Shown: positions 16,624 through 64,000, counted from the stretch's first letter. The stretch is 64,000 nucleotides of DNA from an uncultured Gemmatimonadaceae bacterium (GCA_963790305.1 CAWBOC010000009.1:864001-928000), one strand, 5' to 3'. Numbers and translations are program-made. The notes: a model not told the origin generated them from the letters alone.

Positions 16624-16688
16624 TCGAGAATTTTAGCTCCACCGGCGATATTCGTTAGCAGCTACTCACGTGCGCACCCGGAGGAACC

Positions 16689-18843: not shown

Positions 18844-18845
18844 TA

Positions 18846-18879: not shown

Positions 18880-18926
18880 GTCCGTGCGCAACGAGCTTGG
18901 TGAGTCTAATCGGCGCTCACGGACCC

Positions 18927-19316: not shown

Positions 19317-19334
19317 AACGAATCAATGGTTGAA

Positions 19335-27310: not shown

Positions 27311-27486
27311 ACGTTAGGCGGCCCAACCGGTCAGGGTGCGCTCGCCGCGGCGCACTCCTCGTGCGGAACCTCCGCCACGGGGGGTTCTGCCACCTTCTTC
27401 CGCCTCTGACGCAACCCTTGCACTCCACCCCCTGCGCGGGGGTGGGACGCACGACATTGTCTCCCAACTGCTCTCGCGAGTCACGG

Positions 27487-30456: not shown

Positions 30457-30494
30457 GGCTTGATTTTACCACGTCCGCCCGGCAAGGTCATCTC

Positions 30495-41072: not shown

Positions 41073-41365
41073 CGGCTCTCCTGTGTGGGAGCAAAGTGAC
41101 AAGCGAGGAGCGGTTGCGCGCGGTGCGATGCAATCCCGGCGCCCGGATATTCTTCGGTAAAACGAGCGTGATGCGACGCACCTAAATACAACCAACTGTT
41201 GCACCTGTCAACCGAAGCGTCGCCCGAAGGCAACACCGGATCGTCTCGGGATGACCACACACCTGAGGCGTAAACGCCACAGCCTCTAGCGCTTTCGAGC
41301 TGCTCTAAAGAGGCTTTTCCGCCCGACGGAGGCGTGAAAAAGCCGCGAATTGGGAGGCCAATGCA

Positions 41366-41381
41366 TGGGCCCAGACTTGCA
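41366..41381 (+). promoter_or_regulatory. Candidate sigma54 promoter of wzc
   Basis: TGGGCCCAGACTTGCA (GG-N10-GC), about 80 bp before the ATG. Confidence 0.45.
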
Positions 41382-41462
41382 TGGCCGCCCCCGCGCTGGT
41401 CGGACTGTTGCCCGAATTCACTCAAGTTGTTGCCTGCCGCCCTGAGCGCCGCCGCCCTGGAC

Positions 41463-43880: not shown

Positions 43881-43903
43881 CAGCTGCGGCTCTTCCGGAA
43901 CGC

Positions 43904-43940
43904 AATGAGGCCCCGGCGCGAATCGCGCCGGGGCCTCATT
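43904..43940. terminator. Hairpin between convergent genes
   Basis: Perfect 17-bp stem AATGAGGCCCCGGCGCG-AAT-CGCGCCGGGGCCTCATT. Confidence 0.75.
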
Positions 43941-43965
43941 TGCCAGGTGAGCGACACCAGCGGAG

Positions 43966-44917
43966 TCAGGGCGTGGGCCGCGCGGGCAAGTCGTCGAAGG
44001 ATGCCACCGAGAGATCCTCGTGCGTCTGCCGCGCATGGTGAAGTGCCGTGGCAGCGCGAAGAATCATCTCCACCGCATCGACGGGCGACTCGGTGAAATT
44101 AGGCACCGCACAATAGCCGGCTCGAATACGCGGCGCCGAACCATTACCGTCTTCCGAGAAGGTTTCTTGAAGGACACCCTGGAGTCGGGCAACCAGGCGC
44201 TTGGCACCCTCCGCATTGGTCGCGGGGGCGATGATGGCGAACTCGAGGCTGCCGAGGCGGCCGATCGCGTCTGACACGCGACCCTTCTTCCTGAACAGCT
44301 CACTCACCTGTTCCGTGAGGCGCTCGGCCGTGGCTGCGGCGATCTCCTCTCCATTGCCGTCCGCGAGGTCGGGCGCCACCGCAAGGCAGGCGAGCGCGTC
44401 GTGGCGGCGAAATGCATCGTTGCCGATCTCCTGGGCCCGGCGAGCCAGGCCGCGCATGTTGTAGAGACCGGTCCTCTGATCGACCAGACTCTCCGCTCTC
44501 ACGCGATCGACCTCGCGTTTGCATCGCATGAACGTGTCGAGCTTCACGACGAGCGCCTCGCCATCCAGCGGCTGCGTGCAGTACTCCCACGCTCCAGCTC
44601 GATAGGCCGCCAGCCGTTGCGCCCTCGCGCCTTCACCTGCCGACGTGATGACGATTGGCGTGGTGGCGCTGAATCGAGGATCCTGCCGAAGCGTGCGACA
44701 GACGTCGATCCCATCAATGTCGGGGAGTCGCGCGTCGACCACAACCACGTCGGGCAACGAGGTCCGCGCCATTCTCGAGGGCCTGGCGTCCGGTGTGCGC
44801 GCGAAGTACCGCGTACCCGTTGGGACCCAGGATGCTCTCGAGCGAACGAGCCGACCATTCCTGATCGTTGGCCAGGAGAGCCAATGGAGGGCGTGAAGGT
44901 CGGTCGGTCTCGGTCAT
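43966..44917 (-). CDS. REC + degenerate GGDEF protein; +1 frameshift near 44772
   Basis: Joins as GRQALE/MARTSLPDVVVVD; DQRTGLYN; RVSD-x5-GSLEF; start uncertain. Confidence 0.82.
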
Positions 44918-45013
44918 GATCTCTTGAAGTGACGGCAGGGCCACCTTCGTATCAATCGTGTAATTCATCTCCGCGGGCATCATGCAGGAGTCATGCGGGG
45001 GCGGGGATCCCCG

Positions 45014-45026
45014 TAACGTATTGATT
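45014..45026 (-). promoter_or_regulatory. IHF-like site
   Basis: AATCAATACGTTA matches WATCAANNNNTTR. Confidence 0.4.
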
Positions 45027-45409
45027 CAGGTGGGTTTCAGGCGACGCTCTTCCGACGCGCTCTCAAAATGTGCCGCATGGGCGCCACAATAACGATGGAT
45101 TGCGCTCGACGGCTGCAGTCACCGCACATTAGGCGCCATTTGCCGCGACCGCCGCGTCCACCTAGGCCCCGCCTCGAGCGCTCCCGCATGCCTCCCGGTG
45201 TTGGGAGCGTGCGAAAACCTTGTGGGCGCGCCGCTACACCCACCCGATCAAATTCCCTGTGCAACGACTGACCACACATTACAAGATGTTGTACCAGTTA
45301 GCGTTAGCATTACGCATCAAGGGCACCTTTCGGTAGCACGGGGAGTGCATGAGGGCGGGCCATGACTCTCCGCCCCTCTCGCATCAACTCGAACGCGTCC
45401 TTCCACGTC

Positions 45410-46177
45410 ATGACTCGCTTCTGTGCGACGTGGATCGCGTTTCTTTTCGCCGCAGCGCCCGCGATCGCGCAGTCAACCAGCCCCCAGGCGTCGCGGAACG
45501 CCCAGGCGTCCCGGGAAGAGCTGATGGTCCTCGCCGCTGACGCCGAGCGGCAGGCCACGTCAGGCGGCACCGAGGAAGCCCGTCAGCAAAAGCGCCTCGA
45601 GGCGACAGAGCTCCGCGAGCGACTTCGTGACGGCGATTTCCAGGTTGGCGACCGAATCGTGCTGAGCGTGCGCGGGGATTCCGCGCTGACCGACACGTTC
45701 GTCGTGCGGGCGGGTCGTACCCTCAGCCTTCCGAATATCGCCGAGATCTCGCTCGCCGGTGTCCTTCGCTCGGAGCTGCAGACGTTCCTGTCGAAGGAGA
45801 TCGCGCGGTACGTTCGCGAGCCGGTGGTCCAGACGTCCTCGCTGATTCGTCTCGCTGTGCTCGGCCAGGTGATTCGCCCGGGGTTCTATGCCGTTGGTTC
45901 GGATGTCCTGGTGACCGACGTGATCATGCTCGCGGGCGGGCCGAGCACCGAGGCAGATCTGCGGAAGGTCAGCGTGCGACGCGGGGCGCGAGAAGTGTGG
46001 ACCTCGGATCGGATCCATATGGCGATGACGCAGGGAACCACGCTCGATCAACTCAACCTGCGCGCCGGCGATGAGCTGGTGATTGGAGAGCGGAAACGGC
46101 GCGGGTTCGGGTCGGTATTGCAGGTCGTCTCGGCGGTAAGCGCAGTCGCGATCGGCATCGTCACACTTTCGAGGTAA
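45410..46177 (+). CDS. Polysaccharide export protein (Wza/OPX-like, Poly_export + SLBB)
   Basis: FQVGDRI, LPNIAEI, VLGQVIRPG, LAGG, LRAGD; signal peptide. Confidence 0.85.
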   Translation: MTRFCATWIAFLFAAAPAIAQSTSPQASRNAQASREELMVLAADAERQATSGGTEEARQQKRLEATELRERLRDGDFQVGDRIVLSVRGDSALTDTFVVRAGRTLSLPNIAEISLAGVLRSELQTFLSKEIARYVREPVVQTSSLIRLAVLGQVIRPGFYAVGSDVLVTDVIMLAGGPSTEADLRKVSVRRGAREVWTSDRIHMAMTQGTTLDQLNLRAGDELVIGERKRRGFGSVLQVVSAVSAVAIGIVTLSR

Positions 46178-46186
46178 CGAGAGATC

Positions 46187-47011
46187 ATGGAAGCCGGCCC
46201 CTCACAGTCCATGCGAACGCGCCCTCACAAGCGGCCCATGGGCGTGCGCAGATCGGCAGGCGTGCCGGTCGAGGCAAAAACCCCCGATGCAGCGCCGCTG
46301 TTGCGGGTGGTGCGAGAGGACCTCGTCCTTCCAAAGGGGGATTCCCCGGCCGGACTGACGGAGCGCGAGCGGGCCGTTACGCTCGATCGTGTCATCAACG
46401 TCACGCTTGCCACGCTCGCAATGATCTTCCTCGCACCGCTCTTCGTCGCGGTGGCGATCGCGATCAAGCTGACGTCACGCGGCCCTATCTTCTACATGCA
46501 GCCCCGCGTCGGCGTCGATCGCCGCACCTCCGGGACGGCACCGGGATACGACCGTCGCGGTCGGGATCTCGGTGGGACCATTTTCTTGATCTACAAGTTC
46601 CGCACGATGTTCGTCGACGCCGAGACTCAGACGGGCGCGGTCTGGGCGACGAAGGGAGATCCTCGAATCACTCCCATTGGCCAGTTTCTGCGCAAGTGCC
46701 GCATCGACGAGCTTCCGCAGCTGATCAACGTGATTCGCGGGGAGATGAAGATTGTCGGACCGCGCCCCGAGCGCCCGGGCATCTTCGCCCGCCTGCGCGA
46801 GGACATCGCCGAGTATCCCCTTCGCCAGCGGGCGAAGCCGGGAATCACCGGCTGGGCACAGATCAATCAGTCGTACGATTCGTGTCTGGACGACGTGCGC
46901 TCGAAGGTTCGCTACGATCTCGAGTATCTCGAGCGGCAGAGTATCGCCGAAGACCTTCGCATCATGGTCAAGACCGTCCCCGTCATGCTGTTCCGCAAGG
47001 GCGGCTGGTAG
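46187..47011 (+). CDS. Priming sugar transferase (polyprenyl-phosphate phosphoglycosyltransferase)
   Basis: YKFRTM, DPRIT, DELPQL, VGPRPE, KPGITGWAQI. Confidence 0.93.
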   Translation: MEAGPSQSMRTRPHKRPMGVRRSAGVPVEAKTPDAAPLLRVVREDLVLPKGDSPAGLTERERAVTLDRVINVTLATLAMIFLAPLFVAVAIAIKLTSRGPIFYMQPRVGVDRRTSGTAPGYDRRGRDLGGTIFLIYKFRTMFVDAETQTGAVWATKGDPRITPIGQFLRKCRIDELPQLINVIRGEMKIVGPRPERPGIFARLREDIAEYPLRQRAKPGITGWAQINQSYDSCLDDVRSKVRYDLEYLERQSIAEDLRIMVKTVPVMLFRKGGW

Positions 47012-47052: not shown

Positions 47053-48228
47053 TCAGGCGGTCCGTCTCGTAGGCTCCCAGGTCGCGTTTCGATGACCGCG
47101 AAGAACCTGCCGCCACGCCAGTAGCCCAGCGGCGCAGGACGCCAGGACAAAACCCGGGAGCGCGAACAGCGTCGGCACAGTCCGGTTCCGGCGCCAACGC
47201 ATTCCGATCACGCCGAGCAGTGCGCCCGCGCCGAGCGCGGCCAGCACCAGCGACATCGCTGGCCACTCCAGACTCAGCAGCGCAAGTCCGAGCACCGCGC
47301 CCGGAAGCGTCAGATACACCAGCCACCGCGCGAGCTTGTGGCTGAGAAGGAACCAGGCAAACATCCCGTATCGACGCGGATTCATCAGGTGGCGCTTGAA
47401 CCACAGTGTCTCCAGCCCTCGCGCCATCGTACGAACCTTCCGGCGGAATTCGGACTCCAATGATGCGGTCCGAGGGACGATGCACGTCGCATCGCCGACG
47501 GACACCGCCCGGTAGCCGCGCTCACGAACGAGGAGCGCCGAGCCGAAATCACGGCTCAAGTGCTCCGGAAAGTCCGTGACGTAGAGCGCTCGTCTGATTC
47601 CGTAGAAACAGCCGCTGGCGCCGACAATCGAATGCGTGCGCGTTTCGAGCGCGCGAATCCACATCTCGTAGCCGACGTATCCAGCCTCGCCTCGATTCCC
47701 GTCGCGCGCAGCGGTTCCCACGCTCACATCGCACCCCGACGCCACACCCACGGTCGGATCCTGGAACGCCAGCACGAGCGCCTTGAGCGCGTTCGGCAGC
47801 ACGCGGACGGACGCGTCAATGTTGACGACGAGTTCGCCGCGTACGACGAAGCCAGCCGCATTCTCGGCCGCGGACTTGCCGCGGCGCGTTGGCAGCCGGA
47901 GCAGCTCGACGCCACGCCCGGCGTATCCTTCGACGATGGCGTCCGTGCGATCGGTCGAGGCGTCGGAAATGACGAGGATCTGCAGCTTGTCAGCCGGATA
48001 ATCGAGCGCGAGCAAGCTGTCGAGCGCGTCGGCGACTCGCGACTCTTCGTTGAAGCATGGGACGGTGATGCTGACCGTTGGCCATGCGCTTGGCTCGGGC
48101 AGTCGCGGCACGACGGGCCTCCGAGATGCGACCGCCTTCAGCAGAAGCGGGTATCCCGCGTACGCGTACGCGAAGAGCGCAGCCGGCGCGGCGATCAACG
48201 CCGAGCCAAGGACCGTGGGCAGCGACAT
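47053..48228 (-). CDS. GT2 glycosyltransferase (membrane-anchored)
   Basis: VPCFNEE, SDASTD, GKSAA, C-terminal TMs. Confidence 0.9.
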   Translation of the reverse strand: MSLPTVLGSALIAAPAALFAYAYAGYPLLLKAVASRRPVVPRLPEPSAWPTVSITVPCFNEESRVADALDSLLALDYPADKLQILVISDASTDRTDAIVEGYAGRGVELLRLPTRRGKSAAENAAGFVVRGELVVNIDASVRVLPNALKALVLAFQDPTVGVASGCDVSVGTAARDGNRGEAGYVGYEMWIRALETRTHSIVGASGCFYGIRRALYVTDFPEHLSRDFGSALLVRERGYRAVSVGDATCIVPRTASLESEFRRKVRTMARGLETLWFKRHLMNPRRYGMFAWFLLSHKLARWLVYLTLPGAVLGLALLSLEWPAMSLVLAALGAGALLGVIGMRWRRNRTVPTLFALPGFVLASCAAGLLAWRQVLRGHRNATWEPTRRTA

Positions 48229-48246
48229 GGGACGAGGTGGCCCGTG

Positions 48247-49380
48247 CTAGGCGGTGGTGGCGGAGGAGCCTTGCGCCAACGCCTGCAGCTTGCTGGGAAC
48301 CGGTGGCCAGGTTTGCAGGCCGACCTCAGCATACGCTTCCACCAGCGGCGCGGGTCGAGAGTCACCGACGAGAACGTGAAGGATCCATCCGACCGCCATG
48401 GCGATTCCGAAAACCACGTAGTACGCGAGATGCATCGGAATCGCTCGCAGGGTGAAAAGGAGCCCGCGCTCCCGCTCGAAGAACCCGTAGAGGTGGCGGT
48501 TCACGAAAAGGATGGCCTGAAGCGAGACGGCGGTCGCGATCAGCCATCGCTCATCCCACGCGATGGCTGCGAGAACGAGGAAGAAGAGCGCGGCCCAGAC
48601 GAAGCCGGTGTTGGTCCGCTCGACGGTCTTGAGCGCGATCCGATCGCTGTCCTGGCTTGCCCGCTGTCCCATCAGCAGGCGCATCCACGGCACACCGCGG
48701 TCCCGAAGATCCGAGCGGATTGCCGCTCGAAAGGTCCACTCGGTGAGGTTGGTGACACTGATCTCCGGACGCAGAACGATCTTGTACCCGCGCGCCCGAA
48801 TTCGCTGGCCGAGCTCCATGTCCTCCACCTGCAGCCTGGCGAACCGCCACTCGTCGTACATTCCCGCCTCGACGAAGACCTCGCGTCGCACCGCGCCGCA
48901 CACCGCCCAGAACGTCTCGGCGTCACCGGCACTCTGCAGGTGCACGTAGTGGTGAAGGAGGTTGCGATACGTCGAGACGACTCCGACCGCCGGAGAGCTC
49001 GTAGCATAGCTGCCGAACACTGCACTGACGTCCGGCTCGTGGGCGAACACCAGCGCGATGCGGCGCAGAGTGTCGCCCTGCACGCGCGCGTCCGGGTTCA
49101 CGAAGACGACGCCCTCGCCGCGCGACACCTCGAAGCCGCGATTGCGCGCGTACGCGGGACCGCGAGCGTTTCCGGGCAGGCTGACGACTGTGTCGGCGTA
49201 CTCCGCCGCGATGAGCGCGGAATCATCCTGGCTCGCGTCGTCGACGACGATCAGCTCCCAGCAGTCGCGCGGCAAATCACTCTGAACGATCGCATCCAGG
49301 CATTGCGCAAGCGTGCGAGCACTGTTGTGCGCGGGGACGATCACCGACAGGTACGGCCCGCGGGTGGTCAGCTGCGTCAT
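48247..49380 (-). CDS. GT2 glycosyltransferase
   Basis: SVIVPAHN, VVDDASQD, GPAYARN, EDMELG. Confidence 0.9.
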   Translation of the reverse strand: MTQLTTRGPYLSVIVPAHNSARTLAQCLDAIVQSDLPRDCWELIVVDDASQDDSALIAAEYADTVVSLPGNARGPAYARNRGFEVSRGEGVVFVNPDARVQGDTLRRIALVFAHEPDVSAVFGSYATSSPAVGVVSTYRNLLHHYVHLQSAGDAETFWAVCGAVRREVFVEAGMYDEWRFARLQVEDMELGQRIRARGYKIVLRPEISVTNLTEWTFRAAIRSDLRDRGVPWMRLLMGQRASQDSDRIALKTVERTNTGFVWAALFFLVLAAIAWDERWLIATAVSLQAILFVNRHLYGFFERERGLLFTLRAIPMHLAYYVVFGIAMAVGWILHVLVGDSRPAPLVEAYAEVGLQTWPPVPSKLQALAQGSSATTA

Positions 49381-49974
49381 TTACCGGGCTCGCCTGACCT
49401 GCTCGACGTCAGCAAGATGCTCGGTCCATCGCGTCAACGCTGCGCGGGCGCGGGCAGCATCCGGTGCAAGAGTCGGCGGGGACGGCTTGAGCGCGCCCGC
49501 ACCGCCGGCTGGCACCACGCCACGCACCGCCAGGAATTCGGCCCAATCGGTGGCAGCTTTCACGCGTCGCCCGTTCTCGGATCCCGTCCCCTTCCGTGAG
49601 CTCCCTTCGAAGCGGCGGATGCGGTCACACCATCCGTCCTCTTCGAGAACGGACCAGTCGAGGACGAAGACGATGTCTCCGGTCGCGTGCGCCATGGCGA
49701 GCCGGCGCACGTCTGATTGAGTGGCGTCGTCGGGAACCGCGACGAAGCGGATGTTCCACTCTTCGCGAAGGGCGTCATATGTCACGCCGCGAGGCAGCGC
49801 CACGACGAACTCGGCGCTCAGCTCCTTGCACCGCGCGGCGACGGATCTCAATGTCGCGAGATGCCGCTCCTCACACGTCGTGCTCATCACGACCGAAAAC
49901 GCTGGCACGGCCGTGGCTCGCATGAGCTTCAGGTATGAAGGGTGAGAAGGGGAGCTGCTCGAGTTTGGCGTCAT
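49381..49974 (-). CDS. Hypothetical protein with a partial, degenerate GT-A fold
   Basis: FSVVMS...RRLAMAHATGDIVFVLD; stop abuts the GT2 start; start uncertain. Confidence 0.55.
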   Translation of the reverse strand: MTPNSSSSPSHPSYLKLMRATAVPAFSVVMSTTCEERHLATLRSVAARCKELSAEFVVALPRGVTYDALREEWNIRFVAVPDDATQSDVRRLAMAHATGDIVFVLDWSVLEEDGWCDRIRRFEGSSRKGTGSENGRRVKAATDWAEFLAVRGVVPAGGAGALKPSPPTLAPDAARARAALTRWTEHLADVEQVRRAR

Positions 49975-50273
49975 CACCGCACGGATCTGGCTGGATGGAG
50001 CGCGAGCTTCCACGCGTGGACGAGCAGGTGGTCTCTCGATCTGTTCCGTTCGCTGCAGGCTTGCACGCGAGGGCGCACACCCTGTGGGCAAGAAGCAGGC
50101 ACGCGATGAGTGGGTAACGATGCCGTTGTCGCGGCGAGAGTTAGGCTTCGCGTACCCAGGCGCGAATCGCACATCAGCTGGCGAAGTGTTGCGACCCTCC
50201 TACACGGAGCCGCCACGCCCCAGTCGGGATGCATGGCAGGTTTCGAGAGCGCGATCGCTTCGTCGCAATTTCG

Positions 50274-50708
50274 CTACGCGTTGACGACGTTGGCGCTCGG
50301 TGGTGCGACGGACGCTACCACGGCCGCGAGGGGAATCGTCACTCCAATGCCTCGCTCCAGCTCGCTCAGCCGCTCCATGGCGCTGCGCGGATCGGCGTAC
50401 GGGATCTCGCGCGCGTCGAGCTGCGCGCGGAACTCGTCACTCCACGCCACGACGATGCGCGCGCGCTGTGCCGCGGAGCAGACGAACTGTTCATCGCGAG
50501 CATCGACGTAGACCACACCATTGAGACGCAAGTGGCGGCTCGATGACACGAGTGGATCGAGTACGCGATCCACCGCCTGCGGCGAGACGCCGCGTAAGAC
50601 GAGCATTACATATCCAACGGAGCTGGCACGGTAGGCAGCGGCCAGGAGCCCGGTGGGCAACGCTCCGGTGGATTCTGGTGCGATCTCGAGCACGGCGGCG
50701 ATCCGCAT
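50274..50708 (-). CDS. Hypothetical protein
   Basis: GAGG RBS, globular alpha/beta pattern, upstream sigma54 motif. Confidence 0.55.
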   Translation of the reverse strand: MRIAAVLEIAPESTGALPTGLLAAAYRASSVGYVMLVLRGVSPQAVDRVLDPLVSSSRHLRLNGVVYVDARDEQFVCSAAQRARIVVAWSDEFRAQLDAREIPYADPRSAMERLSELERGIGVTIPLAAVVASVAPPSANVVNA

Positions 50709-50759
50709 ACATTTCCTCGGGACTCGTTTGAGCAAAGCAGCTTCAGCGGCTCGCGAGGG

Positions 50760-51285: not shown

Positions 51286-53291
51286 TTGGCGAGTCCGCGT
51301 CCTACTCACATTCTCGGCATTTCCGCTTTCTATCACGATAGCGCAGCCTGCTTGCTGCGAGACGGCGAGATCGTCGCCGCTGGGCAGGAGGAGCGCTTTA
51401 CGCGTAAGAAAGGCGACGCCGATTTTCCCGCCAACGCGGTTCGCTACTGCCTGTCGGCGGCCGGCATTGGTCTCGAAGACGTCGACCATGTCGGCTTCTA
51501 CGACAAGCCGCTGCTCAAGTTCGAGCGGATTCTCGAGACGTACCTCGGTGTCGCCCCGCGCGGATTCAGCTCGTTCCTCAAGGCGGGACCGCTGTGGGTA
51601 AAGGAAAAGCTCTTCACCGACCGGCAGCTTCGTGACGCACTCGGCGGGTATAAGGGGGACCTTCTGTACGCCGAGCATCACGAGTCGCACGCGGCGAGCG
51701 CTTTCTTCCCCAGCCCGTTCCAGGAGGCGGCCGTCCTCACCATGGATGGTGTCGGCGAGTGGGCCACAGCCTCCTATGGCGTTGGACGCGGCAACGAGCT
51801 GCAGCTCCTCAAGGAGCTTCGCTGGCCCGATTCGCTCGGACTTCTGTACTCCGCGTTCACCTATTACACCGGCTTCAAGGTGAATTCGGGCGAGTACAAG
51901 GTGATGGGCCTCGCCCCATATGGAACGCCGAAGTACGTGGACCTCATCTTTCGCGAGCTGGTGAATCTGCGCGAGGATGGCTCGTTCACGCTCAACCAGA
52001 AGTACTTCAACTATCTCTCCGGCCTCACGATGACCAATGAGGCGTTCAACGAGCTCTTCGGCGGTCCGCCGCGTGAGCCGGAGACGAAGCTGACGCAAAA
52101 GGAGATGGACCTCGCCCGGTCGGTCCAGGTCGTTTGCGAAGAGATCATGCTGCGCATGGCACGCACGGTCCATCGCGAAACCGGCATGGAGAATCTCTGT
52201 CTCGCGGGTGGAGTCGCTCTCAACTGCGTCGGCAACGGTCGGATTCTCCGCGAAGGGCCGTTCAAGCAGCTGTGGATCCAGCCCGCCGCCGGTGATGCGG
52301 GCGGTGCGTTAGGTGTGGCACAGCTGATTTGGCACCGCCATCTCGAAGAAGCCTCGCACCGTCGCCAGCCCCGCTCCGTTCGCGGCAGTGGGCGCGGGGT
52401 CGAACGGCAATGGAGGAAGACCCGCGGCGCCTCGTGGTGTCGTGGAACCAGACTATGCATCGACCGGTGGCGCCGCCGTCGCCGTAGCGACCACGCCCGC
52501 GAGGACGAGCGTCCTCGCAGCCGCGACATCCCACGCGCCTGACGGGATGCGGGGAGCCTACCTCGGCCCCGAGTTCTCGCCGGATGAGATCGAGAAGTTC
52601 CTGACGTCGATCGGGGCTCCCTATCACCGTCTCGACCGCGCAGCGCTGGTGGATCGGATTGCCGATCTGCTGGCGGACGACAAGGTGCTCGGCTTCTTCA
52701 ATGGGCGCATGGAGTTTGGTCCGCGCGCCCTCGGTGCCCGGAGCATCATCGGCGACGCGCGCAGCTCGCGCATGCAGGCGCAGATGAACCTCAAGATCAA
52801 GTTCCGCGAGAGCTTCCGACCGTTCGCTCCGAGCGTGCTGCGCGAGCGAGTCGCGGATTACTTCGAGATGGATTGCGATTCGCCGTACATGCTCCTGGTC
52901 GGTCCGGTGAAGGAGGAGCGTCAAATTCCCGATGAGCGACGCCCAGCAGCAGCTCTGGGGGATCGAGCAGCTGAACGTCGTGCGCTCGGACATTCCCGCC
53001 ATCACGCACATCGACTATTCGGCGCGCGTGCAGACAGTGAGCCGTGATACGAATCCCAACTACTACGACGTGATCAAGGCGTTCGAGCAGCGCACCGGAT
53101 GCGCCGTGATCGTGAATACGTCGTTCAACGTTCGTGGCGAGCCCATCGTGTGCACGCCTGAGGACGCGTACCGCTGCTTCATGCGGACGCACATTGATCA
53201 CCTGGTGCTGTGGCCGTTCCTGCTGGACAAGACGGCGCAGCCGACGTGGAAGGAGACGAGCGATTGGCGCACGGAATTCCAGCTCGATTGA
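51286..53291 (+). CDS. O-carbamoyltransferase (NodU/CmcH/SxtI family); two +1 frameshifts (near 52344 and 52930)
   Basis: ILGISAFYHDSAA, EHHESHAAS, DGVGE, GEYKVMGL, GGVALNC, GDAGGA, EFGPRALG, FRPFAP, NTSFN; CAGGAGG RBS before TTG. Confidence 0.92.
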
Positions 53292-53662
53292 GCCCTGCTG
53301 AGGGCCGCAAGTTCGCCCTCACCGTGGGAGCGGCCTTTGTCGCGCTCGCGGGATTTACGTGGTGGAGAGGTCACCAGAAGGTCGCGACAGTGGCCGGCGC
53401 GCTCGGCACGGCGTTCCTGCTCGCGGGGCTCATCGCCCCGGGCCAGCTGGGCCTCATCTATCGCGGGTGGATGGCGTTCGGCCTGGCGCTCTCGAAGATC
53501 ACGACGCCGATCTTCATGGGTATCGTGTACTTCGTGGTGATTACGCCGATGGGTATTCTCCGTCGGGCGATCGGGCGCAACGCGCTGATCGCGCGCGGAA
53601 CGACGACGGTTTGGGCGACGCGTGACCTCCAGGCGTCCAGTGATCTCAACAGACAGTTTTGA
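53264..53662 (+). CDS. SxtJ family membrane protein
   Basis: GRKFALTVG, YRGWMAFG, YFVVITPMG, ends QF; overlaps the carbamoyltransferase stop. Confidence 0.85.
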   Translation: MAHGIPARLSPAEGRKFALTVGAAFVALAGFTWWRGHQKVATVAGALGTAFLLAGLIAPGQLGLIYRGWMAFGLALSKITTPIFMGIVYFVVITPMGILRRAIGRNALIARGTTTVWATRDLQASSDLNRQF

Positions 53663-53677
53663 ACTCGAGGAGATTCC

Positions 53678-53839
53678 ATGAGCCAGTCGAGCAATTTGGT
53701 AAGTGAGCTGTGGGCGTTCATGCGAGAGCGAAAGAAGTTCTGGTTGCTGCCGATCCTCGTGGTACTCTTCCTCGTCGGCTCGCTCCTGGTCTTCGCGCAG
53801 GGCTCAGCGCTCGCGCCCTTCATCTACACGATTTTCTAG
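53678..53839 (+). CDS. SxtK/DUF5989-like small membrane protein (53 aa)
   Basis: Not in the track; MSQSSNLVSELWAFMRERKKFWLLPILVVLFLVGSLLVFAQGSALAPFIYTIF; GAGGAG RBS. Confidence 0.9.
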   Translation: MSQSSNLVSELWAFMRERKKFWLLPILVVLFLVGSLLVFAQGSALAPFIYTIF

Positions 53840-53847
53840 GAAAGTCG

Positions 53848-53873
53848 GGAGCGGATGCGATCGCATCCGCTCC
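53848..53873. other. Perfect 26-bp palindrome/hairpin after the SxtK-like gene
   Basis: GGAGCGGATGCGATCGCATCCGCTCC; no U-tract. Confidence 0.7.
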
Positions 53874-53919
53874 GGCTTCCCCGGCGTAGATCCGCGGCAG
53901 TCCCCCACCCTCCACCCCG

Positions 53920-54948
53920 GTGGCGACTGCGGTGCGCACGCTCCTGCGACGAGTGCTGAGCCTGTTCGGTGTGGTTGTCTACCACACCGGCCTCGCTCCG
54001 CTCGTCATGTGGCTCAACCGCCGGACGCCGAAAGTCCTGCTCTATCACGCGTGTGAGCCCGCCGAGTCGGACTTTGTCGGGGGCTTGAACTCGAATACGA
54101 CACCCGACGTATTCGCGGGGCAGCTCGATTTCCTGCAGGAGCGCTACCAGGTGATTCCTCTAGCGCTGCTGGAGGAGGGGCCGATCCCCGACCGCGCGGT
54201 CGTGATCACCTTCGATGATGGATACCGCTCCGTGTACGAGGCGGCGTATCCCCTGTTGAGCGCGCGAGGCATGCCGGCGACGGTCTATCTGGTGACGTCC
54301 GCGGTCGACAATTCCGTCCTCGTCTGGGTGAACGCGCTGAACTGGCTGCTGCATCGTCACCCGGCGATCTGCGCCCCGATCGCGCATCGCCTCCTTCGCA
54401 CGCCGGTCGCGTTCCGCTCCGCGCGGGAGCACGTGTTGCACGCGCAGGCGCATTACGATGCGGCGCTAATCGAGACCGCCCTCGCTGAAATGTGGCAGGC
54501 AGCAGGGATCGACCCCGCCGCATTCGCCACCGAGGCCGGTCTATATCTCACGACCGCGCAGATCCGCGAGCTGACACTGAAGGGGTGGTCCTTCGGCAGT
54601 CACACCGCTCGGCACCCCAACCTCCGCTGCCTCGACGAGCCGGAGCGGCGCGCCGAGTTGGAGACAGCATTTCGATTCGTTGCGGGGATCAGCGGCCGAC
54701 CGTCCCTGTCGTACCCCTTCGGCGAATTCGATACTGACACGCGCCGCCTCGCCGTCTCCCTCGGCCATCGCACGATAATGCAGGTGGGTGGCGTGAATCG
54801 CCCGCTCCAACTCTCAGCCGTCGCTCGGATCCCAGTGACCGCTGAATCCCGAGCAGCGTTCTTCGCGGAGATGGAAATCGTGACCCCAGTTCTGGCGTGG
54901 GCCAGGCGACTTACCGAGCGAAATCGATACTCCGTCGCAACCGACTAA
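53920..54948 (+). CDS. Polysaccharide deacetylase (NodB/CE4)
   Basis: LLYH, ITFDDGY, GSHTARH, SYPFG. Confidence 0.9.
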   Translation: MATAVRTLLRRVLSLFGVVVYHTGLAPLVMWLNRRTPKVLLYHACEPAESDFVGGLNSNTTPDVFAGQLDFLQERYQVIPLALLEEGPIPDRAVVITFDDGYRSVYEAAYPLLSARGMPATVYLVTSAVDNSVLVWVNALNWLLHRHPAICAPIAHRLLRTPVAFRSAREHVLHAQAHYDAALIETALAEMWQAAGIDPAAFATEAGLYLTTAQIRELTLKGWSFGSHTARHPNLRCLDEPERRAELETAFRFVAGISGRPSLSYPFGEFDTDTRRLAVSLGHRTIMQVGGVNRPLQLSAVARIPVTAESRAAFFAEMEIVTPVLAWARRLTERNRYSVATD

Positions 54949-54969
54949 CCTGTCTCTCGCCTGGAGCGA

Positions 54970-56139
54970 TTGATGGCGTCGACCCGAGGCAATATCGCGC
55001 TGCTTGTGCTGTCCACGGTTCTCTCGATCGTTGCGGTCGAGGCGATCCTGCGTGCGGTGGCGCCGATCGCGGATCCGTACAAGCTGAACAAGCGGCGACC
55101 GAACGTCGTTCAGACATACCTCCGGTCATCGTTTCCTCCGAACATGCGGGTTCAGTTGTCGACCGAGGAGGGGCTGCCGGGGATGGACGGCAGAGCGACC
55201 ACGTTCTCGACGAATAACGTGGGACTCCGGGGCGACAGCCTGCCAATGCCGAAACCGGACGATGAGCTACGTGTCTTCGTCGTCGGCGGCAGCACGACGG
55301 AAACTCTGTACCTCGATGACCGGCAGGCGTTGACGCGCGTATTACAGAATCGCCTGGACACGATCGTCTCCGGGATGCGGGTCAAGGTCTACGGCGCCGG
55401 GAAATCGGGCGCGAGGAGCTACGACCACATCGAGATGATCGCGCACCGACTCGTCCATCTCGAGCCGGACGTGCTCATCGTGTTTGCCGGCATCAACGAC
55501 CTGCGCGCCGCGATGTACGGCCGGGATTTTCTCATGCTGCCTCCTGCGTTCGGCGCGCCGGACACGGAGTGGTCGCTGATGCAGTTTCTGCGCTTCGCGA
55601 TGACCGAGTTTCAACTGGGACGTCGTCTCTTCTCGCTGCTGAAGCCAGACGAGTATCGCGATGCCGTCGAACAGATCACGCTCCGGAGCAACTTCCGTCG
55701 GTCTGTCAGGATGCGAGAGGCGCTTCCCGTGAGCGCGAGCCCACCCAGGACCGACGTGGCACGATACCGGGACAACATGAGATCAATCGTCGGGATCGCG
55801 AGGTCGCACGGCATCGATCTCGTTTTCCTGACGCAGGCCACGACGTGGAACAGCCGCGTGGACTCGGCGATCGCAAAGTGGCACTGGATGACGGGCGGCC
55901 CGGACAGCGCATACCGCGAAGAGGCGCTCGATCGTGCGATGGAAGCGTATAACGATGCAGTCCGCGCCGTCGCCGCCGAGTTCGACGTCCCCCTCTTCGA
56001 CCTCGCGCGCCTACTGCCGAAGTCGGGGGAATACTTCTACGACAATGTTCATTTCAATCCACGGGGCGCCGAGACCGTCGGTGCGAGGTTGGCATCGTTC
56101 GTGTCGGAGAACACGCGGTTGAAGAAGGTGTTGCGTTAG
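54970..56139 (+). CDS. Membrane-anchored SGNH/GDSL protein
   Basis: N-terminal TM; GGST, GKSG, GIND, DNVH blocks. Confidence 0.88.
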   Translation: MMASTRGNIALLVLSTVLSIVAVEAILRAVAPIADPYKLNKRRPNVVQTYLRSSFPPNMRVQLSTEEGLPGMDGRATTFSTNNVGLRGDSLPMPKPDDELRVFVVGGSTTETLYLDDRQALTRVLQNRLDTIVSGMRVKVYGAGKSGARSYDHIEMIAHRLVHLEPDVLIVFAGINDLRAAMYGRDFLMLPPAFGAPDTEWSLMQFLRFAMTEFQLGRRLFSLLKPDEYRDAVEQITLRSNFRRSVRMREALPVSASPPRTDVARYRDNMRSIVGIARSHGIDLVFLTQATTWNSRVDSAIAKWHWMTGGPDSAYREEALDRAMEAYNDAVRAVAAEFDVPLFDLARLLPKSGEYFYDNVHFNPRGAETVGARLASFVSENTRLKKVLR

Positions 56140-56386
56140 CTGCAAGCCCGCTTCGCATTTGCCCACCCCGGTCGACTTTTTTCCGGTTGGCGGAGGTGTG
56201 GAGTCGCTGCAACACACGGCAGGGTCCGAGCAGATTCCACGAGGGCGAGCGCACTCCTATCTCTTTATGAGGAAGTGGTTTAGCCATGGGAGCAGCACCT
56301 CGACGCGTCTGTCCAAGTTCTTGCAATCGTGGATGCCGCCTCAGGGTCACCACTCATTCACGACCAGTGTCAAGTAAAGACTACCA

Positions 56387-57466
56387 ATGCAGCAGCTAGT
56401 GGAGCCTCGCGACGCGTCGCGGGCGCCGATGCACGAGCGCTTCCCCACACTCGACTGGCCCAGGGGCGAGACCCGACCCTTCCAGTCGCGCGCGTGGCTG
56501 CGGCACTGGGTCGAGCACCGCGGTGCCGGGCTGGAGTCCTTTCCGATTGTGGTGGACGGCGGCGCCACCGTCGCGCCGTTTGGACGGCTTCGAGTTGCTG
56601 GCCTGCGTGTTCTCCGGTTGCTTGGCAGCGGTGACTCTGACTTCAACGGCCTCATCTCCACGCACGGTGCGGACGCTGCGTGGGACAGCGTGGTCGCGGA
56701 ATTGGCGCGACGCCGGCGCGAGTGGGATCTCCTTCACCTTCATTCGGTAGCCGAGCGCGACGCGATCTTACCGGCACTCGAGCGGCATTTGGGCCGCTCG
56801 GGGGCGGCGCGGCTCTACGAAGCCTGCCCGTTCATCCGTCTTGCAGGCACGTGGGGCCAGTTCATTGGCGCGCGCAAAAGGCTGCGTGGCGAAGTGGGAC
56901 GGTGGACCCGGCGGCTCGAGGAAATGGGGCCACTCACCCTCCGCTCGGTAAAGGCGCCGGTCCCGCAGGAAGTACTCGACGTCATCGTGGAAATCGAGCG
57001 GGATTCGTGGAAGTGGGAGCACGGCAATGCCGCATTCAAGCCGGGCAGTCAACGCGATTTCCTGTTTGCGGTACTGCGGGACGCCGAAGCACCCGCACGT
57101 GTGTGGACTCTCAGCGTAGGCGATCGCGTTGCCGCTTTCGGGATTGTGCTCGAGGGCGCAACGCGCTGGTGTTTTTACCTCGCCGCGTATCGTCAGGAGT
57201 TCAAGAACGCCGGGTCGATGCTGCTCGCGCGTCTGGTCGAGGCGGCGCACGACGCCGGCTGTACATCGTTCTCGCTCCTGCGGGGGGATCTGCACTACAA
57301 ATACGATTGGGCGAACGAAAGCGAAGATGTCTACGAGATTGTGTGCGCTTCCAACCCACTCGGTCAGCTGGGTGCCCTGGCCTACCAGGCGCGTTGGCGC
57401 GCTGCCACTTCCCCGCTGATTCGGCGCGTGCGCTCCGTTCTCTTCAGGGCCGGGGACCGGCGGTGA
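56387..57466 (+). CDS. GNAT family protein (CelD/BcsL-like)
   Basis: DFNGLI, WDLLHL, SWK, GSMLL, LRGDLHYKYDW. Confidence 0.85.
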   Translation: MQQLVEPRDASRAPMHERFPTLDWPRGETRPFQSRAWLRHWVEHRGAGLESFPIVVDGGATVAPFGRLRVAGLRVLRLLGSGDSDFNGLISTHGADAAWDSVVAELARRRREWDLLHLHSVAERDAILPALERHLGRSGAARLYEACPFIRLAGTWGQFIGARKRLRGEVGRWTRRLEEMGPLTLRSVKAPVPQEVLDVIVEIERDSWKWEHGNAAFKPGSQRDFLFAVLRDAEAPARVWTLSVGDRVAAFGIVLEGATRWCFYLAAYRQEFKNAGSMLLARLVEAAHDAGCTSFSLLRGDLHYKYDWANESEDVYEIVCASNPLGQLGALAYQARWRAATSPLIRRVRSVLFRAGDRR

Positions 57467-57512
57467 AATTGTTTCCCTCGGTGAGCGCCACGACTCGGCC
57501 TGCGCGCACCGC

Positions 57513-58142
57513 TTGATGCTTCGCCATTTGCAGGAGGCGCGCGCGCGCGCCAAAGAACACGGCTGGGGTCCCGTCATGATTCTGATCAAACAGGCGCTCC
57601 GCGAGCGGATGACCAATCCGTGGCATCTGATGTATTGGATTCCGACGACAGAGGTGAACCTGGTCCCTTTGCCGTCGAACGGATCATTCATGGTGATTAC
57701 CGATCCGGTGCGTGAATTGAGTCCCGCGCAGCGCAAGGTTCTCATCGACGCGCTCGGACCGCGCTCGGACAAACAAGCCGAAGAGCGATTGGCCAGCGGA
57801 GCGCTCCTTCACGTCCTTTTTGTCAATGAGATGGTGGCGGGTACCCTCTTCACCGTTTCCGGTGCAGCACGTCGTTTCCAGCACATGGTCCTGACCAATG
57901 GCGACAGCATGGTACTCGACGCGCGCATCGTACCCGCATTCAGGGGGCGCGGCCTGTACCCTGTTCTGCTCGCGCACGCAGCCGACGCCCTGCGAGCTCA
58001 CGGACAAGACCGTCTCTACATCGACACCCTGGAAACCAACACAGCTTCGCTGCGAGCGTATGCCAAGGTCGGCTTCCGCTTTCTGACACGATATCGCATG
58101 TCGTGGCGTCGGCATTACCGTTTCGCCGAGGCACCGCTGTGA
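57513..58142 (+). CDS. GNAT N-acetyltransferase
   Basis: PAFRGRGLY, NTASLRAYAKVGF. Confidence 0.8.
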   Translation: MMLRHLQEARARAKEHGWGPVMILIKQALRERMTNPWHLMYWIPTTEVNLVPLPSNGSFMVITDPVRELSPAQRKVLIDALGPRSDKQAEERLASGALLHVLFVNEMVAGTLFTVSGAARRFQHMVLTNGDSMVLDARIVPAFRGRGLYPVLLAHAADALRAHGQDRLYIDTLETNTASLRAYAKVGFRFLTRYRMSWRRHYRFAEAPL

Positions 58143-59248
58143 TCAGAATGCGCGAGCCTTTGCGTGTTTGTCACTTCGTATCAGGCGATGCGTGGGGCGG
58201 ACTGGAAGCCATGGCGTTGAGTCTCGTGCGCGCCCAGCACGCCGATCCGGCGTACGAGGTCAGTCTCATCGCGCTCAACAATGGACGCTTGTATCGGGAA
58301 GCAATGGCGGAAGGCATCGCCGTGCACTTGCTGCCGGAGCGCGAGCTGAATGCGTGGCAGCTCGTTCGTGGACTTCGACGAGTCCTGACCTCGTTGCGAG
58401 CGCAGGTGCTTCACACGCACCGGTACAAGGAGAACTTCTTTTCGTACCTGGTTGCGCCCGGACTCGGGATTCGGCCGGTCGTTACCCTGCACGGGTACGG
58501 GCCGAGCTCCTTCACACCGGCAGGAATAAAAACCTTCGTCAGGGATTTTATTTCCTTTCGCCTCGCTCGGCGCGCTCGCGCGCAATTCGTCGCCGTGTCT
58601 CGCGATCTCCAACGCCTCTACCGTCCCAAGGACGACGACTGCGTCACAATTCCGAACGGTGTTGCCGCACCCGCCGGGTCATCTCGTCAGGGAAAGAATG
58701 GTGACCGGCCACTCGTCATTGGCTGGGTGGGACGGCTGGTTCCCATCAAGTCGGTCGGGACGCTCTTGGAAGCGCTCACGCACATGGGTGCGGATAGCGG
58801 GCAGCCGACCGTACTCCTGGTTGGTGATGGCCCCGAGCGCGCAGCGCTTGCCGAGCACGCGAAGCGCCTGGGGATCCAGAGTCGAGTTCAGTTTACGGGC
58901 TACGTCGAAGATCTCTCGCCGTTCCTTGCCCGCATGGATGTATTCGCCCTGCCTTCCCTACATGAGGGCGCGCCAATGGCGCTGTTGGAAGCCATGGCCG
59001 CCGGGGTGCCTGGGGTGGCAGCCCGGGTAGGCGGAATCCCGGAAATGATCGGCGAAAGCGGAGCAGCATGTCTGGTTGAGGGGCATGATCCGGTCGTGTG
59101 GGCGCGTGCAATAGAGGGCATTCTCGCTGATCGAGCGGCCACCGATGAGATGGTCAATCGCGCGCGCCGGCTCGTATCCGAGCGCTTTTCAGTCGACGCG
59201 ATGCACACCAGGTACGGCGAGCTGTATCACGCGATCATTACGCGTTGA
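58139..59248 (+). CDS. GT4 glycosyltransferase
   Basis: GGLE, VGRLVPIK, VGDGPER, EGAPMALLEA. Confidence 0.92.
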   Translation: MIRMREPLRVCHFVSGDAWGGLEAMALSLVRAQHADPAYEVSLIALNNGRLYREAMAEGIAVHLLPERELNAWQLVRGLRRVLTSLRAQVLHTHRYKENFFSYLVAPGLGIRPVVTLHGYGPSSFTPAGIKTFVRDFISFRLARRARAQFVAVSRDLQRLYRPKDDDCVTIPNGVAAPAGSSRQGKNGDRPLVIGWVGRLVPIKSVGTLLEALTHMGADSGQPTVLLVGDGPERAALAEHAKRLGIQSRVQFTGYVEDLSPFLARMDVFALPSLHEGAPMALLEAMAAGVPGVAARVGGIPEMIGESGAACLVEGHDPVVWARAIEGILADRAATDEMVNRARRLVSERFSVDAMHTRYGELYHAIITR

Positions 59249-60758: not shown

Positions 60759-61673
60759 ATGATAAAGATGGTGTATTCCGTTTTCCGCCTTACGATGCTC
60801 CCACTCCTGGCGTCGTTCCACTGCGGAGACGAACCGGTACCCATAACCGACGAACCGGTACCCATAAGCAATGATGCCTCGGCTGAGCCCTCTCTCCACA
60901 CTCAGGGGCGGCTGTTTCGGTCTGATTGGAGCAGCCTCACGGGAAGCAGCGACAGCGCGCACTCCGACAAGGGGCGTTGGACCGACCTGTTTTGCAGTTC
61001 CACTGTCCGCAGCCGGGTGCTATCGGTAGTCCCCGGCTCGACTGCTGGCTGGACCGCGACGCCGAACATCATGCAGGTCACCAACCGCGGCGCACAAAAC
61101 TGCGGCATGATGGAATCCGTCGTCGCGCCCAGGGGCGCCAGCTACTTCATCCGCATGTATATCCGGGTCGAGGATGAGAACCAGTACAGCTTCCATTCCG
61201 TAAACATCAATTCGCTGGGCGACGTTCAGGTGCCGCTGTGGGCGATCTTCAACCCGGTCGCGGGCGTGGATTATTCGCCGAAGCTCACGCTGGCGCATCC
61301 CCATCCCAGCGCAATCCGCGACTGGCGGCCCCGCGCGAAGATTCGCATGGCGCAATGGTACCGCTTCGAATGGCACGTCGAGATCTTCGACGTCGCCAAC
61401 CGGTCAGCGCGTATCTGGCCTCGCATCTACGACATGGCCGATAATCTGGTCGCCGACGCGTCCGCGTACATTCAGGAAGCGCACCCCAGCAGCCCGCTGA
61501 CCTTGCAGCAGTGGTACGACAACGGCGGATTCCACCGCTTCACGGATCTCGAAATGGCCCGCAAGTTCGGCCTCGGGTACGAAGGGCCCGCCGGCGCCGC
61601 TGATCGCGGACGGAAGTGGTACTACGCAGCTGTCGAAATCAGATCGGATACCTGGGCGGGCCCGCTTCGATGA
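60759..61673 (+). CDS. Exported hypothetical protein, aromatic-rich beta-sandwich-like
   Basis: Hydrophobic N-terminus with Cys; YFIRMYIR, QWYRFEWHV, DTWAGP. Confidence 0.6.
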   Translation: MIKMVYSVFRLTMLPLLASFHCGDEPVPITDEPVPISNDASAEPSLHTQGRLFRSDWSSLTGSSDSAHSDKGRWTDLFCSSTVRSRVLSVVPGSTAGWTATPNIMQVTNRGAQNCGMMESVVAPRGASYFIRMYIRVEDENQYSFHSVNINSLGDVQVPLWAIFNPVAGVDYSPKLTLAHPHPSAIRDWRPRAKIRMAQWYRFEWHVEIFDVANRSARIWPRIYDMADNLVADASAYIQEAHPSSPLTLQQWYDNGGFHRFTDLEMARKFGLGYEGPAGAADRGRKWYYAAVEIRSDTWAGPLR

Positions 61674-63202: not shown

Positions 63203-64000
63203 TCAATGTGGCTCGCGTGCTACGGCTCGGCCGGCTCCTGAGTTGACGACCAGGCCTCGTGCCAGCACGATGCCCAGACCTATGCCGGCAATCGCGCCGA
63301 GCACGTGGTGCCCGGGAGTGGGAAGAAGTCCAACCCATGCCGGCAAGACCACGATCGCGGCTGCGAAAACCGAGAGCGCGCATAACGACTCCCATCGCCG
63401 ACGCGCCCAGAAGCCCACGGGAACTGCCAGCATCACGAGCCAGACTATGCTCAAGGCCGACTTGAGCAACACTGGCCAATGCTCCATGTAGAGGAAAAGC
63501 GCCCAGCCCATCCCAGCAGAGAAACCACTACTGCAGGGAGGCTCAGGTCCAAATCCCACGCAATAATTCCGGCCCGAACGGCGAGCCGTGACGGTGACGT
63601 CTGAACCGGGCACGAGGTTGCGCCAACCGCCAACAACGCGAAGGTCCGGCTGGTCCAGCCTTGCCGAGGCAGAACGCATCCGCACCCGGAACACGAGGTC
63701 GTCCCGATCGGGGCCAATCAGAGCGACCTCGCGTTTGAGGTCATCGTAAATGGCGAACATGGCGGCTTGTCGGGATGTCCTGGGCGCCACAACTGCAACG
63801 ACGCGAATCGGCGCACCCGCGTGTAACAGGTCACGGACCCGAGTCGGTCGCTCGATCCGCCCAGGCGGAAAAGGTTGTCCGCCAATGGATGCCGACCGGA
63901 CCGGTGCATCGTAGGGGTCCAGGTGCCTGAGTGCCGGCGTCCACATCACGAAATACGTGCCCTCGGGGGTCTCGGGCTCGAACAGCAAACCCGTGCTGGC
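63203..64000 (-). CDS. Membrane protein, 3' part only (possibly VanZ-like family)
   Basis: Open frame to the window edge; three C-terminal TMs; no family motif visible. Confidence 0.5.
   Translation of the reverse strand, partial: ASTGLLFEPETPEGTYFVMWTPALRHLDPYDAPVRSASIGGQPFPPGRIERPTRVRDLLHAGAPIRVVAVVAPRTSRQAAMFAIYDDLKREVALIGPDRDDLVFRVRMRSASARLDQPDLRVVGGWRNLVPGSDVTVTARRSGRNYCVGFGPEPPCSSGFSAGMGWALFLYMEHWPVLLKSALSIVWLVMLAVPVGFWARRRWESLCALSVFAAAIVVLPAWVGLLPTPGHHVLGAIAGIGLGIVLARGLVVNSGAGRAVAREPH

Follow-up and report, generated by a model that had tools for sequence, protein, structure and literature searches.

Within a 64,000-nucleotide stretch of DNA from an uncultured Gemmatimonadaceae bacterium (GCA_963790305.1 CAWBOC010000009.1:864001-928000, or C9:864001-928000; the whole stretch is called the window below), genes for an O-carbamoyltransferase (CT), an SxtJ-like membrane protein, the microprotein SxtK and an SGNH protein lie together, and SxtK ends in the tyrosine motif of known acyl shuttles. 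The module probably works as a carbamoyl-tyrosine relay, whatever its acceptor; that it delivers the group to the polysaccharide predicted for this locus is judged slightly the better bet. A preliminary description of the DNA had proposed that SxtJ and SxtK form a membrane relay that moves a carbamoyl group to a surface polysaccharide. The relay part of this idea is favoured by the tail of SxtK, by its link to SGNH genes and by tails fused to CTs, but specificity for glycans finds no support. The tail is the key feature that the description left unnamed. The source genome is 4.3 Mb in 13 contigs, with 66% GC and 94% completeness. The features of the module, in window coordinates, are as follows.

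51286-53291, plus strand: O-carbamoyltransferase of the SxtI/NodU type, from the branch that travels with SxtJ and SxtK (PF02543, E 2e-99; PF16861), read in three frames.
53264-53662, plus strand: SxtJ-family membrane protein, 132 aa, three helices (PF19588, E 7.7e-10), its putative start chosen by a ribosome-binding site and by the consensus of the family.
53678-53839, plus strand: SxtK/DUF5989 microprotein, 53 aa, with a basic cluster, one hydrophobic helix and a C-terminal tail (PF19451, E 1.7e-25; alignment, hydropathy and charge).
53819-53836, plus strand: FIYTIF hexapeptide of SxtK, an instance of the FXYXXF motif defined in PMC12148441; Tyr50 codon at 53825-53827.
53920-54948, plus strand: CE4 polysaccharide deacetylase (PF01522, E 1.3e-20), found at the same place in the same-genus genome G005.
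54973-56139, plus strand: SGNH protein, 388 aa, with an N-terminal anchor (PF13472, E 4.4e-17; alignments, model and tree); Ser107 codon at 55291-55293, His360 codon at 56050-56052.

All five genes are detected by Pfam and follow one another on the plus strand in the order CT, SxtJ, SxtK, CE4, SGNH, as first described. Their description as co-oriented among wzc, wza and glycosyltransferase genes holds only in part, given that about 4.3 kb with minus-strand GT2 glycosyltransferase genes separates wzc and wza from the module. The CT is spread over three frames.

The C-terminus of SxtK, F-I-Y-T-I-F, fits FXYXXF, which the accessible text of PMC12148441 describes as the acyl-shuttle motif; there, the tyrosine of DltX or PatA is acylated by a membrane-bound O-acyltransferase (MBOAT), then unloaded onto the serine of an SGNH protein. 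FIYTIF is the sole C-terminus of strict FxYxxF form among the 44,882 open reading frames (ORFs) of the genome. Among SxtK copies from loci L031-L230, tyrosine stands at position -4 in 124/124 and the motif is complete in 117/124; the fetch pattern for 80 of these loci contained FIY, and the remaining copies, taken from CT-centred regions, agree. In seven of eight MBOAT loci, the MBOAT that accompanies SxtK, as a single gene copy, finishes with the same motif (FIYFQF, FLYFQF or FIYFDF); the eighth is cut by the locus edge. PFIYFQF at the end of an MBOAT can be set beside PFIYTIF at the end of SxtK. Pfam contains a DltX model. The 124 SxtK copies, which matched 23 families at E <=1, did not match a profile named for DltX, short peptides being hard to link in this way. 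The likeness of SxtK to DltX and PatA is one of motif and architecture.

Enzymes of the NodU/TobZ type use carbamoyl phosphate and ATP to make a carbamoyl-adenylate. The CT of the window would form this adenylate and then hand its carbamoyl group to Tyr50 of the FIYTIF tail. The membrane-anchored SGNH protein, the candidate final transferase, would accept the group on Ser107 and pass it to a hydroxyl of the polysaccharide, facing outward and transferring rather than hydrolyzing. Transfer from an acyl-tyrosine to an SGNH serine operates in the Dlt and Pat systems, according to the portions of PMC12148441 available. The role of the MBOAT tunnel would fall to SxtJ and to an amphipathic segment special to the CT branch, which together would bring the tail within reach of the enzyme: the segment would embed the CT in the inner leaflet, with SxtJ allowing the hydrophobic tail to dip towards it.

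Gene neighbourhoods were surveyed in three sets of loci, 137 in all: 80 selected by SxtK, 37 SxtK loci from a CT-first sample of Pseudomonadota, and 20 from cyanobacteria (20 of 23 matches fetched, six of them close kin). As a control, 301 genomes from the phylum of G096, a Herbaspirillum, were sampled by CT alone, and 100 CT loci were retrieved. From the 149 CT matches used (150 listed minus G096, with 18 more unlisted), repeats on a single contig were discarded, as were matches with a centre under 6 kb from the start of their contig. Loci were then taken at even steps, for 40 of 46 high-scoring and 60 of 73 low-scoring CTs, with one low-scoring region swapped against overlap. One locus with SxtJ and no SxtK (L138) is excluded from both the 37 SxtK loci and the 62 loci of other CTs, and its genome, G267, is counted among the 37 genomes that carry the module.

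In the SxtK-selected set, an SGNH gene lies within 10 kb in 49/80 loci and is adjacent in 39/80; glycan genes are present in 40/80, and SGNH is found in 26 of the 40 loci with glycan genes and in 23 of the 40 without. In the CT-first sample, the SGNH profile matches in 15/37 SxtK loci and in 2/62 loci of other CTs. A wider hunt raises the control to 6/62 (Fisher p 6e-4, with kin that are not independent), and the tally is incomplete, as the GDSL gene of L171 escaped both the profile and the motif filter. Considering only loci with glycan genes, SGNH occurs in 7/17 SxtK loci and 2/44 others. The cyanobacterial loci carry SGNH in 15/20 cases, in a set that includes the six close kin. The gene lies inside the module in 8/137 loci, and the background in the window's own genome is 6/208 tiles.

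The comparison was extended to whole genomes, all of them CT-carrying. The SGNH profile matches in 36/37 module genomes and in 12/39 other-CT genomes, in which SxtK was not searched for, at E 1e-12; the counts become 34 and 3 at 1e-19, a cut chosen post hoc to remove short partial matches. An MBOAT lies elsewhere in 22/37 module genomes, and SGNH is still matched at 1e-19 in 12 of the 15 without one. Near the module itself, MBOAT genes are scarce, in 5/80, 2/37 and 0/20 loci (7/137). The preliminary description had predicted that SxtJ/DUF5989 genes would keep company with SGNH genes and polysaccharide genes and lack MBOAT neighbours. The survey agrees with it on SGNH and on MBOAT and disagrees on a specific link to polysaccharide genes, which is considered below. 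The CE4 deacetylase, which the same description had placed in the relay, is adjacent to the module in 2/80, 0/37 and 0/20 loci, and was rejected as a member; it is a local passenger.

The module was found in 24/61 genomes around the window's own and in 23/151 cyanobacterial genomes, and an estimated 8,300 or so stretches in GTDB fit its patterns. Cultured bacteria in which a homologous module stands beside an SGNH gene include Herbaspirillum sp. Sphag64 (L088), Azorhizobium oxalatiphilum (L109) and Leisingera sp. SS27 (L077). An unpublished genome, G015, supplies one row of alignment A1, the seed for the GTDB pattern count, the longer-protein search and the local profiles; it is among the 24/61 and enters no other count. 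Five cyanobacterial loci (L231-L234 and L246) have SxtK with or without SxtJ and no SGNH nearby, four of them with no CT, so that the partners may do their work from other sites in the genome.

The association is tied to the tyrosine in the control loci as well. All six that hold an SGNH-type gene also hold a tyrosine tail, carried by the CT in L176 and L189, by a short ORF in L171 and L209, by an SGNH-like protein in L212 and by an MBOAT in L172. In the CT tree, the SxtJ/K-linked branch groups most closely with the CTs of L171, L176, L189 and L117 (109 leaves, support 0.938, midpoint root), each of which has an SGNH neighbour and a tyrosine tail. The genes for CTs with fused tails are as follows.

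L176:9089-10849, minus strand: CT with fused tyrosine tail.
L189:9053-10813, plus strand: CT with fused tyrosine tail.
L251 and L253: further CTs with fused tyrosine tails.

In these four loci, a gene for an SGNH-like protein of about 700 aa follows. The CTs of L176 and L189 end VYTFF, and homologs of the C-terminal region of the L176 enzyme (P0241-P0360) have tyrosine at -4 in 119/120, for a query that contained the tail and favoured tailed matches. The fused tails read VYTFF, VYTLL and VYTLF, the last comparable to the IYTLF of SxtK. A separate SxtK and a tail-fused CT parallel the separate DltX and the fused PatA. Because they tie the tail directly to the CT, the fused tails are the strongest argument that the CT would load the tyrosine.

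Several less regular arrangements were seen. In L138, an SGNH domain with no anchor is fused to a degenerate carbamoyltransferase (11361-14564, minus strand) beside a CT-SxtJ pair without SxtK, and a short basic ORF ends DIYPFF (14867-15049, plus strand). A DUF6071 protein ending PFIYP lies immediately before the CT in L212 (8023-9114, plus strand), and a 34-aa basic peptide ending DPYIYK lies between DUF6071 and the CT in L209 (8311-9137, plus strand); DUF6071 is termed SGNH-like by its motifs alone. The ORF of L171 that ends PFVYVMH follows the GDSL gene (8873-10434, plus strand). L117 combines a divergent DUF5989 peptide that ends SFIYAGI with a CT and a tandem run of six SGNH genes, of which the first has TPR repeats (9207-19815, plus strand). 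Candidate fusions of SxtJ, CT or SGNH to SxtK, sought among 120 longer proteins, were set aside as probable artefacts of frameshifts or start calls, nearly all being single-member clusters with a partial partner; no MBOAT-SxtK fusion was present among the 120.

Whether carbamoyl-tyrosine shuttling is a widespread strategy for group transfer is, at present, evenly poised. Under that generalization, the tail would reside on a membrane microprotein accompanied by SxtJ, on the CT, on a soluble basic peptide or on an SGNH-like protein. The membrane form would be a third membrane route besides MBOAT and AT3, with a cytoplasmic enzyme and a three-helix protein in place of a tunnel, and SxtL-type proteins would be transferases.

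A number of observations weigh against the relay or its polysaccharide acceptor. The SGNH profile was trained on SxtK-linked proteins. SGNH is missing from the 10 kb around about half of the modules (31/80 and 22/37) and from the first 1.5 kb past SxtK in four of five further loci of the same genus (L003, L004, L015 and L019); in 16/68 loci the adjacent SGNH is solely on the opposite strand. The charge pattern of SxtK places its tail outside the cell, whereas the CT is cytoplasmic. SxtJ has no invariant histidine, its only invariant residues being Trp and Pro. AT3 acyltransferases are encoded in the genome, one of them inside the extended locus, and could feed the SGNH proteins instead. Glycan genes are rarer near SxtK loci (17/37) than near other CTs (44/62; p 0.019), such that a glycan-specific link of the module was rejected.

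The frequency of stand-alone CTs in glycan loci (44/62) suits a different scheme: direct carbamoylation of a lipid-linked or nucleotide sugar by the CT at the cytoplasmic face, as for WapO or NodU. SxtJ and SxtK would do no more than anchor or regulate the CT, with the SGNH acting as an independent esterase or receiving its groups from an AT3 acyltransferase. WapO, in the text of PMC8005017 available, is a putative stand-alone CT for the lipopolysaccharide core of Pseudomonas; the conserved amphipathic segment of the SxtJ/K-linked CTs is suited to membrane binding, the SGNH is esterase-like, and AT3 genes are at hand. Direct transfer nevertheless leaves unexplained the invariant C-terminal tyrosine in shuttle register, the same tail fused to sister CTs, and the way in which SGNH tracks only the CTs with tyrosine tails, and it is regarded as unlikely.

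Even if the relay is real, its acceptor might be a small glycoside, a lipid or a product of non-ribosomal peptide or polyketide synthases (NRPS/PKS) encoded further along the locus. Both chemically known cases, saxitoxin and suomilide, are small molecules in the sources as far as available, 40/80 SxtK loci have no glycan genes, NRPS/PKS genes lie in L002, and a phosphopantetheinyl-transferase-like gene follows the SGNH gene in G005. The module of the window, however, sits among wzc, wza, wzy, a flippase and many glycosyltransferase genes, and glycan genes occur in 46-50% of SxtK loci but in only 30/208 tiles of the window's own genome. Such an acceptor is considered distinctly unlikely, and a carbamoyl-tyrosine relay that ends on the polysaccharide is preferred.

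The SGNH protein of the window has a hydrophobic helix at residues 8-26, and S107, G143, N175, D357 and H360 are intact in alignments. The model (pLDDT 93) contains a Ser-His-Asp triad of S107, H360 and D357. Named homologs at 86% identity come from Gemmatimonadaceae, and in the tree the protein belongs to a supported nine-member set, of which seven are adjacent to SxtK. An N-terminal hydrophobic helix is present in 47/49 SxtK-linked SGNH proteins, with more positive charge before the helix in 32/49 (an N-in pattern), more after it in 7 and equal charge in 10, the window's own protein among the equal. Other features do not favour a transferase. The block II glycine is retained (G143 in the window; 38/49 SGNH proteins), whereas it is replaced in PatB and OatA (type I turn); the best structural matches of the model are CgnD (Z 21.0) and esterases, with PatB at Z 15.8 and OatA at Z 15.3; and the SxtK-adjacent SGNH proteins come from many unrelated lineages, with no single orthologous partner.

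The canonical glycine and the esterase-like fold matches would suit an SGNH that acts as a decarbamoylase or editor and undoes the work of CT, SxtJ and SxtK. This role has been published for SxtL as a proposal, untested there as far as the accessible text goes, and the text available on banyaside B describes it as free of carbamate, as an editor could leave it. On the other side, MBOAT-adjacent SGNH proteins are scattered among the SxtK-adjacent ones in the tree, and SxtL is dispensable for the decarbamoyl analogues of Lyngbya wollei. In that cyanobacterium, the accessible text reports a truncated sxtI and no sxtL, does not mention sxtJ or sxtK, and reads the loss as that of an unneeded hydrolase; the case is compatible with either role of SxtL. 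The editing role is very unlikely, and that of final transferase is preferred.

The SxtJ model has three helices (pLDDT 91.6), and the family has a conserved C-terminal xQF/xPF. Fold searches gave no clear match: the best Foldseek hit was at E 2.1, the best VIA hit at Z 8.0 covers a helix pair, and all Atlas leads were below 0.9.

The linkage of CT, SxtJ and SxtK is tight, with SxtJ or SxtK in the locus of 103/104 high-scoring CTs, in variable gene order. The linked CTs form one branch of 105 leaves (support 0.994), distinguished by the strongest amphipathic segment of the enzyme (residues ~70-100), an insert and a C-terminal FELD. The CT of the window has both family domains and the motifs HHxSH, GDAG, GPRALG and NTSFN, spread over the three frames of the assembly. 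For a homolog in L037, the closest solved structures are carbamoyltransferases, including GdmN and TobZ. The intact CT of G005 scores 137 bits against the NodU equivalog model NF041651, below the cut-off of 1000. An insertion of ~55 residues rich in Ala, Gly and Pro lies between the two CT domains (window 52345-52540) and is shared with G005, whose enzyme has 667 aa compared with ~610 in most homologs.

Relative to G005, in which the CT gene is intact and the gene order the same, the CT of the window has single extra bases near 52344 and 52926. These are likely assembly errors, to judge from the sequence comparisons. Both bases are missing from related-strain contigs of runs X2 and X3 and from G005; the three pieces contain no stops, and their synonymous and non-synonymous codon differences from G005 are 70:7, 36:20 and 18:3; and 4/37 other genes tested are also frameshifted, including those for the DNA polymerase III alpha subunit and the large chain of carbamoyl-phosphate synthase. 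That this copy is dead through a true, possibly recent, frameshift is highly doubtful, and is independent of the question of mechanism. A recent lesion keeps its place among the readings because no reads of the source sample were found among the sequencing runs to contradict it (best share 0.16), and two indels in 2 kb are more than the genome's approximate rate, 5 in 37 other genes, would suggest. Further likely assembly frameshifts lie at window 27049-29203, 30426-31776 and 5978-7951, as overlapping same-strand ORFs or a truncated domain (a WD40-like propeller, a VWA pair and a DNA ligase).

The context of the module is that of a Wzy-type polysaccharide locus, with the following neighbours.

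41334-43880, plus strand: wzc.
45362-46177, plus strand: wza.
46187-47011, plus strand: priming sugar transferase.
Within 41334-47011, minus strand: GGDEF gene.
47053-49380, minus strand: two GT2 glycosyltransferases, upstream of the module.
56387-59248, plus strand: two GNAT proteins and a GT4 glycosyltransferase, downstream of the module.

The locus extends past the end of the window (L001 and L002; G000:C9:926001-966000), where it includes wzy, genes for a flippase and a FemAB-type protein, an asparagine-synthase-like gene that a frameshift divides, an AT3-like gene, four further SGNH matches and, in L002, the NRPS/PKS genes. Given these further matches, one SxtK might serve several SGNH proteins. 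The absence of MBOAT, described initially for the window, extends to the whole genome as assembled, at 94% completeness, with 0 matches to PF03062. The statement that no other saxitoxin genes are present likewise stands for the window: no other saxitoxin-type family was found among 70 window ORFs scanned, out of 131 of at least 150 aa, many of those overlapping shadows, in a search confined to the window, with the rest of the genome unsearched. A promoter and terminator scan of the locus gave signal at or below chance, and the only contigs in RNA run X20 are related ones, uninformative on expression of this locus. In or beside the locus are four ORFs that match no Pfam family, as well as a gene for a small NYN-domain ribonuclease, within 60759-61673 (plus strand), 63203-63988 (minus strand), 49381-50735 (minus strand) and 36527-36931 (plus strand). 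G005 is the relative of the window in which the wide neighbourhood was compared; its phosphopantetheinyl-transferase-like gene (L255:6271-7086) lies between SGNH and GNAT genes and is absent at window 56140-56387.

The module has counterparts in several known systems. WapO (PA5005; a putative stand-alone enzyme in the accessible text of PMC8005017), NodU, TobZ and GdmN belong to the same two-domain enzyme family as the CT of the window. The other CTs sampled have no SxtJ or SxtK, rarely have an SGNH neighbour, and lack the inserts and C-terminal FELD of the SxtJ/K branch.

The saxitoxin clusters contain the same four gene types, sxtI, sxtJ, sxtK and sxtL, with CT, SxtJ and SxtK in identical order in the portions available. 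SxtJ and SxtK were listed as of unknown function in 2009 and have no assigned chemistry in the text available of a 2025 review; elsewhere their function is given as unknown, or they are said to work 'in conjunction' with SxtI (PMC2679770, PMC2684587, PMC3037375 and PMC12300590, each in part). The relay would give both a function. The window differs from these clusters in its polysaccharide context and in having no other saxitoxin-type family among the ORFs scanned, and SxtL, in the published proposal a decarbamoylase, is here proposed to be a final transferase. The acceptor in saxitoxin clusters is a small molecule in the text consulted, which weighs against a polysaccharide.

The suomilide/banyaside cluster of Nostoc sp. 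KVJ20 has, in a row, bslP for an MBOAT, bslR for a CT, sxtJ, the sxtK-like bslS and bslT1/T2 for SGNH proteins (PMC10157211; PMC8609519; accessible text). Likeness is seen in CT, SxtJ and SxtK followed by SGNH genes and in a product sugar with an O-carbamate, given that the hexose of suomilide B bears carbamic, hexanoic and butyric acids. In contrast to the window, the carbamate is on a peptide glycoside and the cluster includes an MBOAT, to which hexanoylation is assigned; in PMC8609519 the assignment of the CT is to the Abn core. Suomilides are also reported to be retained inside cells, which does not favour an outward-facing relay. Two donors and two SGNH proteins appear to fit a relay, although the authors, in the text available, propose none.

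No publication was found that links SxtK/DUF5989 to an FXYXXF shuttle, in a search that did not reach most subscription papers and some supplements, including the original DltX and 2008 sxt papers; the word 'carbamoyl' is absent from the accessible text of PMC12148441, and 'DUF5989' from 18 papers screened for it. If the relay is true, carbamates come under the acyl-tyrosine principle, as does a donor other than a membrane acyltransferase, and O-carbamoylated surface glycans, so far unrecognised, are predicted across many phyla.

The closest functional comparison is with the Dlt system for D-alanylation of teichoic acid (DltB-DltX-DltD) and the Pat system for O-acetylation of peptidoglycan (PatA-PatB), which, in the parts of PMC12148441 available, share with the module a small single-helix membrane protein with an FXYXXF end and an anchored Ser-His-Asp SGNH protein, and in which the motif resides on a separate microprotein or is fused to the donor enzyme. 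Unlike these systems, the module has no MBOAT, its proposed donor is a soluble carbamoyltransferase with SxtJ, and the group proposed to be moved is carbamoyl rather than acyl; unlike PatB and OatA, its SGNH protein does not have the block II change. In short, the module would work like a Dlt/Pat shuttle but, with the MBOAT missing, is not a member of that group.

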